Below are positions 38,542-41,921 of a stretch of DNA of 64,000 nucleotides, piece by piece (positions within the stretch are counted from its first letter, which is position 1; every line of letters begins with the position of its first letter). Source of the DNA: an uncultured Bacilli bacterium (lineage in GTDB: Bacteria > Bacillota_I > Bacilli_A > RF39 > UBA660); assembly GCA_944372425.1 (NCBI GenBank), contig CALVZC010000003.1, positions 6,570 through 70,569 of the forward strand. The letters run 5' to 3'. The notes below the pieces were generated by a model. That model had not been told where the DNA came from. It saw nothing but the letters and a program-made list of their open reading frames with translations, and did no database searches. The position numbers were made by a program, and so were the translations under genes.

Positions 38542-39096
38542 TCATATATATATACTATCATCTTTAACATAATTAACTTTATAATATGATTTGCAGTTAT
38601 ATAAAACGATATTATTACCATTTAATGTTTTAGGCACATCAATTAATCTCTGATTTTTTGAACCCCTGAATTTTGCCTCTAAACTTTTTAATTTATAAAT
38701 AAACCTTCCATCAACTAAAACATCTATTTCCTTTAAAAAATCCATTATAATAGCATTTTCTTTACTTTTTTTTATAAGTTGCTCATAAGTATATCCTGTG
38801 TAACACCAAACGTTTAAATTAATTTTATGGCAGTATTTTGCAATTTCTAAGCATGCATCTGGTTGTTCAAAAGGATCACCTCCAGAAAAAGTAACGCCTT
38901 CTTCACAGTCTAATGAATTAATTTCTTTTTTCAATTCTTCGATATCTTCTAAATAACCACCATTATAATCATGAGTTTCAGGATTATGACACATAGGACA
39001 ATTATGCGGACATCCTTGAGTCCATATAACTGCTCTTAGTCCTTCACCATCAACAATACTGCCTCTTTGTAATTTACTAGCTAACCTTATAAACAT
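38542..39096 (-). CDS. nrdG: anaerobic ribonucleotide reductase activating protein (radical SAM)
   Basis: CPHNCPMCHN (Cx3Cx2C cluster) and GVTFSGGDP. The gene is directly downstream of nrdD. Confidence 0.9.
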   Translation of the reverse strand: MFIRLASKLQRGSIVDGEGLRAVIWTQGCPHNCPMCHNPETHDYNGGYLEDIEELKKEINSLDCEEGVTFSGGDPFEQPDACLEIAKYCHKINLNVWCYTGYTYEQLIKKSKENAIIMDFLKEIDVLVDGRFIYKLKSLEAKFRGSKNQRLIDVPKTLNGNNIVLYNCKSYYKVNYVKDDSIYI

Positions 39097-39099
39097 ATT

Positions 39100-39270
39100 T
39101 TAAAAAGAATGTTTTACGCGATCATGTTCTTCGGCACGTTTACTATTATTGAATCTATCAACAGTTCCTACAAGGTAACCAGTAATTCTTCTAATTCTTT
39201 CAAATCCAACTCCTTCTCCTGTAGTTTTCTTTTCTTTTTGCGTTGTTTCAAACTCTAATTCTTTTTTCAT
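39100..39270 (-). CDS. stand-alone glycyl-radical tail of class III RNR (56 aa)
   Basis: Own translation gives MKKELEFETTQKEKKTTGEGVGFERIRRITGYLVGTVDRFNNSKRAEEHDRVKHSF. RRITGYLVG...N.SKR.EE...RVKH matches the NrdD C-terminal glycyl-radical motif. It is in frame with nrdD, 18 nt after the nrdD TAA, with a GGAAGAGG SD. Confidence 0.6.
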   Translation of the reverse strand: MKKELEFETTQKEKKTTGEGVGFERIRRITGYLVGTVDRFNNSKRAEEHDRVKHSF

Positions 39271-39288
39271 TTTACCTCTTCCTTTCTT

Positions 39289-41604
39289 TTATCTACAATC
39301 ACATTGTAATGATGTGATTTTTTCTAAACTTACTCCTTCACCCTCACGACGACCACATTTTGGGCAAACATCTTTAATTATTCCAACATATCCACAAACT
39401 GGATCTCTATCTACTGGGTGGTTTACGGCTCCATAACCAATTCCAGCTTCCTTCATTATTCTAACTACCTTCTCAAATGCTTCTAAATTTTCAGAAGTAT
39501 CGCCATCCAATTCTATATAAGATATATGACCTGCATTAGTAAGTGCATGATATGGTGCTTCTAAAGTTATTTTTTTCTTTATAGTAATTGGAAAATAAAC
39601 TGGTATATGGAATGAATTTGTATAGTAACTTCTATCAGTAACACCTTTTATTTTTCCATATATTGCTTTATCCATTGCAGTAAATCTTCCTGATAGTCCT
39701 TCGGCTGGTGTTGCTAAACATGTAAAATTCAAATTGTATTTTTCACTATATTCATCACATTTTTTTCTTATGAATCCAATTATATCTAAACCTAGTTTTT
39801 GAGCTTCTTCACTTTCTCCATGATGTTCTCCAATAAGAGCTTTTAAGCATTCTGCTAACCCAATAAAACCTATGCTTAACGTTCCATGTTTTAAAACTCT
39901 TCTTAATCTGTCATTTGGTTTTAATTTTTCTGAATCTAGCCATACACCTTGTCCCAATAAAAATGGGAAATTGTAAACTTTTTTATTGCATTGGATTTCA
40001 AAACGTTCTAACAATTGATCTTTTACAAGTTCTACTAATTCTCCAAGTTCTTGATAAAATCCTTCAAAATCAGCTTTTTCTCTCTGCTTCGTAGCAATAC
40101 CATGCTTTAAACCCAATCTTGGTAAATTTATTGAAGTAAATGACAAATTACCTCTTCCTGGTGTCACTGCTTTGTCTGGGTCAACATGATTACCTAATAC
40201 CCTAGTTCTGCATCCCATATAGCCAACTTCTGTATTATAATCACCTTCTTTATAATACTGTAAATTAAATGGGGCATCTATAAAAGAAAAATTAGGGAAC
40301 AATCTTTTTGCCGATACTTTACAAGCAAGTTTAAATAAATCATAATTTGGATCTTCTGGATTATAATTTATACCTTCTTTTACTTTAAATATAGAAATAG
40401 GAAATATTGGTGTTTCTGAATGACCTAATCCAGCATCTACTGCCAATAAATAATTTTCCATGACCATTCTTCCTTCAAGCGATGTATCTGTACCAAAGTT
40501 AATTGAAGAAAATGGTACTTGAGCACCAGCACGGGAGTGCATTGTATTTAAATTATGAACAAATGCTTCCATTGCTTGATAAGTAATTCTATTAGTCTTT
40601 TTATAAGCTTTATCTATTGACATTTCAAAAAGTCTTTTAACCATTTCATTTTCTTTTATAAATCTTTCAAAGTATTCCCAAGTTATTCCAATAGTATCCA
40701 ATTTATCTATTTCTTTTACTACACTATTCATATTTATATAACTTTCAAATCCTGAATAGTCTAATAAATCAGAAATAGTTTGTTTTAGTTGCTTTTTAAA
40801 CGTCATCAATACTCCTGGTGCTAAATAAAAATCAAAAGCTGGTATACTTTGTCCACCATGTTGATCATTTTGATTAGATTGAATTGCAATTGCAGCAAGA
40901 GCTGAATAACTCATAATATCTTTAGGAGAACGTAAATGTCCATGTCCAGTAGAAAAACCATTTTTAAATAATTTTTCTAAATCTATCTGCATACAAGTTG
41001 TTGTACCCATTGGCATAAAATCTAAATCGTGTATATGAATATCGCCATCATCATGAGCATCAGCAAACTTCTTTTTCATTAAATAAGCTTTAGCAAATTC
41101 TTTTGATACTGTAGAACCATATTGTAGCATTGTTCCCATAGCAGTATCACCATCAACATTAGCATTTTCTCTTTTTGTATCATCTTCATGAGCACTTTTT
41201 AATCCTAAACCTTCAAGTGTTTTTAAGAATTTATGCTTTTTCTTATCGTCAAAAAACATTTCTCTTGATTGATTTCTTCTCTCACGATAATCTTTAAATG
41301 AATGATACACATCAAGATATCCTTTTTTTTGTAATTCTTCTTCTATTAAATCTTGAATTTGTTCAATTTTAATTTTTTCTTCTTCTTTATATTCCTTTTC
41401 TATTCTTGATATAACTGATTGATAAACTTTTTGAATATCTTTTTCTGTATATACTTTTCCTGTTTCTACTTCAACGTCATCTGGTACAACGATATTATCA
41501 AACCCTTTTTTTATAGCAAGAGCTATTTTAGCACCATCAAAATCAACTTTTTTGCCATTTCTTTTTACTACCTTAAGATTTTCAAAAAAAGTATCTTTAT
41601 CCAT
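39289..41604 (-). CDS. nrdD: anaerobic ribonucleoside-triphosphate reductase NrdD; main body lacking the glycyl-radical tail
   Basis: ATP-cone (VVKRNGKKVDFDGAKIALAIKKGF), a class III core, and a C-terminal Cys cluster (CGYVG..CPKCG...CDC) just before the TAA. ATG 41604 lies downstream of a good promoter. Confidence 0.85.
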   Translation of the reverse strand: MDKDTFFENLKVVKRNGKKVDFDGAKIALAIKKGFDNIVVPDDVEVETGKVYTEKDIQKVYQSVISRIEKEYKEEEKIKIEQIQDLIEEELQKKGYLDVYHSFKDYRERRNQSREMFFDDKKKHKFLKTLEGLGLKSAHEDDTKRENANVDGDTAMGTMLQYGSTVSKEFAKAYLMKKKFADAHDDGDIHIHDLDFMPMGTTTCMQIDLEKLFKNGFSTGHGHLRSPKDIMSYSALAAIAIQSNQNDQHGGQSIPAFDFYLAPGVLMTFKKQLKQTISDLLDYSGFESYINMNSVVKEIDKLDTIGITWEYFERFIKENEMVKRLFEMSIDKAYKKTNRITYQAMEAFVHNLNTMHSRAGAQVPFSSINFGTDTSLEGRMVMENYLLAVDAGLGHSETPIFPISIFKVKEGINYNPEDPNYDLFKLACKVSAKRLFPNFSFIDAPFNLQYYKEGDYNTEVGYMGCRTRVLGNHVDPDKAVTPGRGNLSFTSINLPRLGLKHGIATKQREKADFEGFYQELGELVELVKDQLLERFEIQCNKKVYNFPFLLGQGVWLDSEKLKPNDRLRRVLKHGTLSIGFIGLAECLKALIGEHHGESEEAQKLGLDIIGFIRKKCDEYSEKYNLNFTCLATPAEGLSGRFTAMDKAIYGKIKGVTDRSYYTNSFHIPVYFPITIKKKITLEAPYHALTNAGHISYIELDGDTSENLEAFEKVVRIMKEAGIGYGAVNHPVDRDPVCGYVGIIKDVCPKCGRREGEGVSLEKITSLQCDCR

Positions 41605-41638
41605 TTTAAAACTCACTTCCTTATCTGTCTTTAAGATA

Positions 41639-41667
41639 ATTTTAGACATAAAAAAAACATAAGTCAA
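41639..41667 (-). promoter_or_regulatory. sigma-A-type promoter for nrdD
   Basis: On the minus strand: TTGACT, 17 nt, TAAAAT. This places the promoter inside the track's N-terminal extension of nrdD. Confidence 0.55.
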
Positions 41668-41921
41668 TGCCATTTTTTTACCATTTTTATAAAACCCTTA
41701 TAAAATAAGATTTTTTTAAAAAAATTATTTTTTCAAAAAAGTGTAAAGTCATTTTTTTTGTTTTTTTTGTTTTTTTATTTTTTTGACATTTGTGTTTTTT
41801 CTTTATTTTTCAAGGTCTTAGTCCAATTTATTGTTTTTTTATTTTCTTTTTTTTAAAAAAAATCAAAAATGAAGTTTTTTACTTTTTCTATTTTTTATTC
41901 TTATTTTTCAACATTTTTTAA

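Follow-up and report, generated by a model that had tools for sequence, protein, structure and literature searches.

The window analyzed here, a 64,000-nucleotide (nt) stretch of DNA from an uncultured Bacilli bacterium (GCA_944372425.1, contig CALVZC010000003.1, positions 6,570 to 70,569; ~25% GC), carries a locus that very probably encodes an obligate two-polypeptide class III (anaerobic) ribonucleotide reductase (RNR). The large chain, NrdD, ends at a TAA stop codon shortly past its zinc ribbon, and the glycyl-radical loop is encoded by a separate 56-codon open reading frame (ORF) lying between nrdD and the activase gene nrdG. This small ORF is predicted to be translated independently, from its own Shine-Dalgarno (SD) sequence and ATG; its product, judging from the genome as a whole, is the regular radical-bearing subunit of the enzyme and not a spare, because no other radical loop exists in this genome. 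A genuine two-polypeptide RNR was one of several options raised in a preliminary description of this DNA, and it is the option upheld here: the split is conserved, both pieces are under selection, almost every relative provides the small ORF with an SD and an ATG of its own, and the enzyme is the sole RNR found.

Organization of the split operon

The class III RNR operon is ordered nrdD (large subunit)–small ORF–nrdG, with all genes on the minus strand. Its features, in the direction of transcription, are as follows:

41639..41667, minus strand: best sigma-70-like promoter (TTGACT-17-TAAAAT), upstream of nrdD; 10/12 consensus matches, top-scoring in the region
39289..41604, minus strand: nrdD, large subunit, 771 aa plus TAA; the translation holds an ATP-cone, the catalytic barrel, and a zinc-ribbon Cys cluster, without a glycyl-radical loop
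39355..39396, minus strand: zinc-ribbon Cys cluster C-x10-CPKC, CGYVGIIKDVCPKC, kept on the large subunit; the same cluster occurs in fused relatives
39292..39354, minus strand: C-terminal extension of the large subunit, 21 residues, GRREGEGVSLEKITSLQCDCR, with a conserved Cys pair at its end
39289..39291, minus strand: TAA stop of the large subunit, the same in 10/10 independent assemblies examined
39271..39288, minus strand: intercistronic spacer, 18 nt, AAGAAAGGAAGAGGTAAA, holding the SD GGAAGAGG at 39282-39275
39100..39270, minus strand: small subunit gene, 56 aa plus TAA, MKKELEFETTQKEKKTTGEGVGFERIRRITGYLVGTVDRFNNSKRAEEHDRVKHSF; ATG at 39270, TAA at 39102-39100
39192-39166, minus strand: radical loop RRITGYLVG, with the Gly31 codon at 39180-39178
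38542..39096, minus strand: nrdG, radical-SAM activase, 184 aa, beginning 3 nt past the stop of the small ORF

The preliminary description had pointed out the in-frame TAA at 39291-39289 that ends the large ORF, the 18-nt gap with SD GGAAGAGG and an ATG ahead of a same-frame ORF of 56 codons, and the glycyl-radical motif within that ORF (RRITGYLVG...RVKH); each of these is present as described. The small protein (~6.6 kDa) comprises a charged, variable N terminus (residues 1-17), a copy of a linker segment (GEGVGFERI), the RRITGYLVG loop with Gly31, and the tail ...DRVKHSF. It matches positions 533-562 of 562 in PF13597 (Pfam) and 698-744 of 746 in NF005497 (NCBIfam), and its residues 23-54 align to residues 707-738 of Prevotella copri NrdD, spanning Gly711. 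Neither the PF01228 Gly_radical model nor the NCBIfam GrcA models match it at E ≤0.1; only NrdD C termini do. There is no curated family for the small protein in Pfam, NCBIfam, or PHROGs, and the few public records with a name for it use “hypothetical protein” or “anaerobic ribonucleoside-triphosphate reductase.”

The large subunit (roughly 88 kDa) covers positions 1-531 of 562 in PF13597 (623.7 bits) and 3-715 of 746 in NF005497 (1,027 bits; cut-off, 764), with PF03477 at 49.9 bits. Its ATP-cone and barrel score above the curated cut-offs and an nrdG adjoins it, as in the NrdD family at large, and the RxxGY loop is missing from the C terminus of this polypeptide. Among 23 aligned split and fused sequences, the NxN flap (N147-A-N149), C204, and the finger-loop C465 (MGCRTR) are invariant, such that the catalytic residues are alike in the two forms. 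A Foldseek search returns the NrdD fold, the best solved match being P. copri NrdD (8P23/8P2S), with which identity is 39-44%. The C terminus reads ...CPKCGRREGEGVSLEKITSLQCDCR-TAA; NrdD had been described as ending just after the zinc ribbon, with the terminal CDC counted among its cysteines, and both statements need correction, as the ORF runs 21 residues beyond CPKC and CDC is an extra Cys pair outside the canonical ribbon.

The probable start of nrdD is the ATG at 41604, giving 771 aa, because the best promoter-like site and an SD lie before it; the sequence ahead of this ATG is GGAAGTGAG. The longest ORF, of 794 aa from the ATG at 41673, includes the likely promoter in its upstream stretch (41605-41673) and is probably over-extended; gene calls in public assemblies give either 771 or 794 aa. 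The site at 41639..41667 is a consensus match only; promoter-like sites in the region do not exceed the shuffled expectation in total, and no internal promoter can be claimed for the small ORF. No terminator-like sites were found between nrdD, the small ORF, and nrdG, and an Rfam scan of the operon yielded no family match, no intron, and no recoding signal. NrdG scores 145.6 bits against TIGR02491 (cut-off, 126.1) and also matches PF13353 and PF04055 in the Pfam and NCBIfam scans.

The terminal Cys pair (CDC, CC, CSC, or CNC) shifts between the two pieces among relatives. Mostly it forms the extreme C terminus of the large chain (CDCR at 39292-39303 in the window). Two large chains (L022 and L037) end in ...LEGKE without it and have cysteine at the C terminus of the small protein instead, as a CSC pair in L022 (...TCSCEN) and as a single Cys in L037 (...QSCTE); the small-ORF C terminus of L026 is listed among the shifting cases as well. 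In the fused L059, the pair follows ...RVKH (FMSECNCD). The pair might serve as the fourth zinc ligand of a three-Cys ribbon or as a redox shuttle.

Conservation of the split

Public assemblies contain this 56-aa protein, residue for residue, in 173 indexed blocks. We read 10 places among these blocks, each in a different metagenome assembly, and all 10 show nrdD–small ORF–nrdG. The 72-nt junction is base-for-base the same as in the window in 8 of these 10 independent assemblies; the other two (L225 and L226) have a 5-nt insertion (TAAAA) in the spacer, such that an identical small ORF is now out of frame with nrdD. The insertion is a strain-level polymorphism that alters the frame relation of the two genes. 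The preliminary description had proposed inspecting nrdD in close relatives, and this comparison shows that the stop is not unique to the present assembly: when NF005497 was searched against 41 related genomes, the split turned up in 15 of the 16 genomes of the same genus and in several genera elsewhere in the family, with the main match stopping at profile position ~713-721 and a separate tail match after it.

At 17 loci from the genus and family, the large ORF always stops 19 to 22 residues past CPxCGR and is followed by a spacer of 13 to 35 nt with a GGAGG-like motif, an ATG, and an ORF of 56 to 59 aa; all three frame relations occur, and the spacers within the genus include lengths of 16, 17, 19, 20, 23, and 35 nt. 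The same pattern extends to a larger set of 94 split loci, drawn from relatives and from distant lineages:

Stop codon of the large ORF: TAA in 66, TAG in 23, TGA in 5
Spacer length: -1 to 298 nt, median ~19
Frame relation 0/1/2: 30/40/24
SD core of ≥4 nt: 91/94
ATG start of the small ORF: 93/94
Small-ORF length: 47 to 78 aa
Loop RITGYLVGT: 91/94

The downstream ORF is not kept in frame across relatives, as recoding would have it. The same-frame relation emphasized in the preliminary description is true of the window itself; with frames distributed 30/40/24 over the 94 loci, however, it is an accident of this arrangement and not a shared property.

Selection and sole-RNR status

Both pieces are under purifying selection. 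Ratios of nonsynonymous to synonymous substitution (dN/dS), from pairwise Nei-Gojobori comparisons of 17 close loci (dS, ~1), are as follows:

Small ORF, radical core: 0.06
Small ORF, variable N terminus: 0.35
Small ORF, whole: 0.13
Large ORF, whole: 0.086
Large ORF, C-terminal extension: 0.16 (median, 0.11)

No match to PF02867, the catalytic domain of class I/II RNRs, was found in the source genome of the window (G000, 95% complete) or in 14 relatives, including the single-contig genome G002; as a control, the same search gives a match in 12/14 reference genomes. In G000, a single NrdD locus, lacking the loop, and a single radical-loop match were found. With PF02867 absent and both NrdD and the loop present only once, the split enzyme is thus the only RNR detected.

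A duplicated linker at the break point

The break lies inside the canonical glycyl-radical domain, leaving the zinc site on the large chain and the glycine loop and tail on the small one. Fused relatives read CPxCGRTEADGVxFERIRRITGY across this region, the last Cys and the Gly being separated by 17 residues. Split loci carry the ancestral linker (GEGV-x-[FL]E[KR]I) on each of the two pieces: past the ribbon, the large chain continues GRREGEGVSLEKI-TSLQCDCR, and the small chain carries GEGVGFERI-RRITGY. The first 13 residues of the large-chain extension are the retained copy of the linker between zinc ribbon and glycine; a hidden Markov model of the fused linker aligns GRREGEGVSLEKI to GRtEaDGvkFERI with 10.9 bits (shuffled sequences: 95th percentile, 1.4; maximum, 9.7), and the large and small ORFs overlap on NF005497 positions 698-715. 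That the distance from Cys to Gly is overlong had been noticed in the preliminary description, rightly so, and it is accounted for by the duplication of the linker segment plus new terminal sequence gained by each piece.

Because both pieces carry a linker copy, the split may have arisen when a short tandem duplication copied the linker and a stop, an SD, and a new start then appeared. A break at this site is structurally plausible, since the glycyl-radical domain of P. copri NrdD (residues 676-739, with a structural zinc site, a surface tail, and the buried Gly711 loop) is a module of high mobility, fully disordered and no longer visible once dATP is bound (PMC11226230).

Alternative explanations

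The preliminary description also listed stop-codon readthrough and a sequencing error or inactivating mutation, neither of which is sustained by the comparisons above. Programmed or leaky readthrough of the TAA would produce an active fused NrdD of ~834 aa and make the internal SD and ATG incidental, and the window taken alone would suit it, its small ORF being in frame 18 nt past a single TAA with no further stop. However, only 30 of the 94 split loci are in frame, which is the chance level; spacers in relatives of the same genus measure 16, 17, 19, 20, 23, and 35 nt; two strains carry a 5-nt spacer insertion ahead of an identical small protein; an SD (91/94) and an ATG (93/94) are almost always present; and the operon has no Rfam element or recoding signal. 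We therefore consider readthrough very improbable as the source of the active enzyme. An error of sequencing or assembly, or a recent inactivation with nrdD now decaying, is more remote still, to the point of being hardly credible: it is true that a single stop parts the two pieces and that metagenome-assembled genomes (MAGs) may hold errors, but the junction is identical in eight independent assemblies, the split is kept in 15/16 genomes of the genus and in roughly 77 genera of the family, dN/dS is 0.06 to 0.16 on all parts, and no alternative RNR was found.

Of the readings that accept two separate products, one takes the small protein for a GrcA/YfiD-type part that repairs an oxygen-cleaved enzyme and is not its normal radical carrier, another option of the preliminary description. 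As in GrcA, the protein is small and stand-alone, with a disordered N terminus and a glycyl-radical loop; lone relatives occur in prophage-like and viral settings; and a related family of 87- to 98-aa proteins is encoded next to, or apart from, intact fused NrdD genes. Yet the large subunit here lacks a loop that could be damaged, and the genome has a single small ORF, such that the small protein must be the primary carrier; nor does G000 encode a full-length, loop-bearing enzyme beside which a spare could exist, and there is no match to PF01228 or the GrcA models. We judge this reading very unlikely. The pieces could also be united into one chain, after translation by a ligation like that of split inteins, or through editing or bypassing of the mRNA, for which the overlapping linker copies on both pieces might speak. 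With no intein or other domain detected on either piece, a small-protein N terminus that is variable and charged (dN/dS, 0.35) and lacks a conserved nucleophile, spacers ranging from -1 to 298 nt, and no intron or RNA family in the operon, such joining is extremely improbable.

The 87- to 98-aa stand-alone proteins form a distinct family, in which a novel N-terminal domain of ~50 aa (MKVNVIGGEMSQKEIDAYV...LDIKIDGEYVDINY) precedes an NrdD-type radical loop; Pfam recognizes only the C-terminal loop. Examples are L059 (JAEWRE010000033.1), L097, and L141 (G262:C1:778361-778624). The gene sits directly after an intact fused nrdD (L059) or is unlinked, beside recA (L141), and a fused NrdD is encoded in these genomes too. 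Within the class, a frame of this kind, 92 to 114 aa long, occurs in about 11 of the genomes sampled. As a candidate for a true spare part, this family would be better than the small ORF of the window.

Other lone copies were seen in phage-like surroundings. One genome (G227) has a second small radical-loop copy beside RusA-like and other phage-like genes (L140, G227:C1:656200-659700). Among the best 80 of 536 IMG/VR relatives (L144-L223), 51 are short ORFs without an NrdD body in ~3.5 kb on each side (≥3 kb upstream), 4 have an NrdD body nearby, and 3 are fused, the body being detected by crude motif matching only.

Proposed mechanism and its limits

For the two-polypeptide enzyme, we propose that NrdG, with S-adenosylmethionine, would remove the C-alpha hydrogen from Gly31 while the small protein is free or already docked, and that the Gly31 loop would enter the barrel of the large subunit beside the finger-loop Cys465; the radical would pass from Gly31 to Cys465 to the substrate, as in single-chain NrdD.

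Several points weigh against this interpretation. Expression, complex formation, and activity of the two pieces are predictions from the sequence. In AlphaFold2 models, the glycine loop finds no confident placement: for the product of readthrough with TAA as Q (23-row alignment), the mean predicted local distance difference test score (pLDDT) is 76.5, with the junction (768-791) and the Gly loop (806-819) below 50, although a fused relative modeled with the same alignment is equally poor, its whole radical domain (727-775) also falling below 50, such that the models count neither for nor against docking. The frame in the window is continuous except for one TAA, and a low-level readthrough product may be made. 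Some bacteria with reduced genomes live on deoxynucleoside salvage without any RNR, such that being the sole RNR is no proof of essentiality. Finally, G000 and most of its relatives are MAGs.

A more speculative extension, which we think rather unlikely though worth stating, is that the 56-aa protein acts as a consumable and exchangeable “radical cartridge.” Oxygen cleavage at the glycyl radical would then cost only the 6.6-kDa piece, a fresh NrdG-activated copy would replace it in the intact large subunit, and lone phage and prophage copies, as well as the 87- to 98-aa family, would use the same docking site. If so, gut anaerobes could recover cheaply and fast after oxygen pulses, and the small protein would be the first trans-acting radical part for a glycyl-radical enzyme beyond pyruvate formate-lyase.

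Relation to known systems

Single-chain NrdD, as known from P. copri (8P23/8P2S), phage T4 (1H78/1H79), and Escherichia coli, has the same ATP-cone, barrel, NxN flap, finger-loop Cys, zinc ribbon, RxxGY radical loop, ...DRVKH tail, and adjoining nrdG. The present enzyme differs in that the loop and tail reside on a separate 56-aa protein that is predicted to be independently translated, the large chain ends 21 residues past the zinc ribbon in a new Cys-pair tail, and the linker segment exists twice, once per piece.

Aeromonas phage Aeh1 has a class Ia NrdA whose gene is in pieces. A split class II RNR, NrdJa/NrdJb, is on record from Pseudomonas aeruginosa (Crona et al. 2015, as cited in PMC9669993). 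In these systems, as here, an RNR catalytic polypeptide comes from two adjoining genes whose products must assemble, but the RNR classes and the break points are different, and in the present case the detached piece is the radical cofactor itself. We also considered a mobile-element origin of the Aeh1 type and rejected it: unlike in Aeh1, the pieces are not parted by a homing-endonuclease gene; the spacer is 18 nt long and free of any Rfam intron. Benzylsuccinate and alkylsuccinate synthases resemble the split NrdD as glycyl-radical enzymes with a large catalytic chain and small chains, but their radical glycine is on the large chain and their small subunits are accessory, whereas here the small chain carries the glycine. 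To our knowledge, the characterized glycyl-radical enzymes all carry the radical glycine on the catalytic chain.

Free-standing radical modules are known only for pyruvate formate-lyase: GrcA/YfiD of E. coli and Y06I of phage T4 are autonomous glycyl-radical cofactors of that enzyme (PMC8683613, PMC13450708), and a 2026 review describes spare parts for other glycyl-radical enzymes as “yet to be determined” (PMC13450708). With these proteins the small subunit shares a stand-alone form with a disordered N terminus followed by a glycyl-radical loop and, presumably, activation by a cognate radical-SAM enzyme and action in trans on a barrel without a functional loop (PMC8683613, PMC13450708). In contrast to GrcA/YfiD, it is of NrdD lineage and not of the pyruvate formate-lyase/Gly_radical family, it would be the only radical carrier of its enzyme and not a back-up to an intact one, and it is encoded inside the operon of the enzyme.

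Full-text literature searches and reviews of RNRs and glycyl-radical enzymes turned up no published split class III NrdD. The split of NrdD is real, conserved, and widespread in sequence data, very probably as a two-polypeptide variant of class III RNR, and undescribed as far as the literature searched shows. If this is correct, a whole lineage, and many others, have no route to deoxynucleotides other than an enzyme with a detached radical loop. For work on how activases place a radical on glycine, the small protein would be a natural, minimal substrate of 6.6 kDa, and the split enzyme would offer a direct test of docking in trans and of exchange after oxygen damage. Annotation is affected as well: the small protein goes without a name in the curated families, and the large gene may be mistaken for a truncated one.

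Distribution and phylogeny

The family to which the source genome belongs in GTDB comprises >200 genera of gut MAGs of 0.5 to 1.9 Mb. In 201 sampled genomes of this family, ~79 of 108 radical-loop matches fall in frames of 54 to 76 aa, and the remaining 29 are in long or contig-truncated fused frames (28 of 454 to 827 aa and one of 182 aa at a contig end). No radical-loop match was obtained in 94 of these 201 genomes, some of which (G020-G024) carry a different, lower-scoring type of NrdD. Beyond the family, the rest of the class is nearly all fused. Split loci also occur in MAGs labeled Oscillospiraceae, Lachnospiraceae, Fibrobacter, and Desulfovibrio (GC, 0.24 to 0.64), where the large chains end CPRCGRREGEAIPPEKLAELRKKYPNMPAFQGIE. 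Public proteins matching the small ORF form at least 7,987 clusters at 90% identity (31 to 98 aa), and the best 150 representatives at 50% identity are all 52 to 196 aa long. Across hundreds of species, the two-gene layout is both conserved and under selection.

A FastTree phylogeny of 127 NrdD cores (C terminus removed, unrooted) requires at least 11 changes between the split and fused states, 7 of them forced by supported branches, and places the window NrdD in a split-only clade of 37 members. As the tree is unrooted, fission and re-fusion are indistinguishable. NrdG lengths overlap between split loci (132 to 198 aa, mostly 167 to 198) and fused loci (163 to 204 aa), such that no adaptation of the activase is obvious.

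In seven single-contig genomes of another family (f12: G314, G323, G383, G389, G435, G453, and G472; 0.9 to 1.4 Mb), the loop match lies in a frame of 170 to 177 aa with an in-frame TGA, which suggests Mollicutes-type decoding of TGA as Trp; the true ORFs are probably longer.

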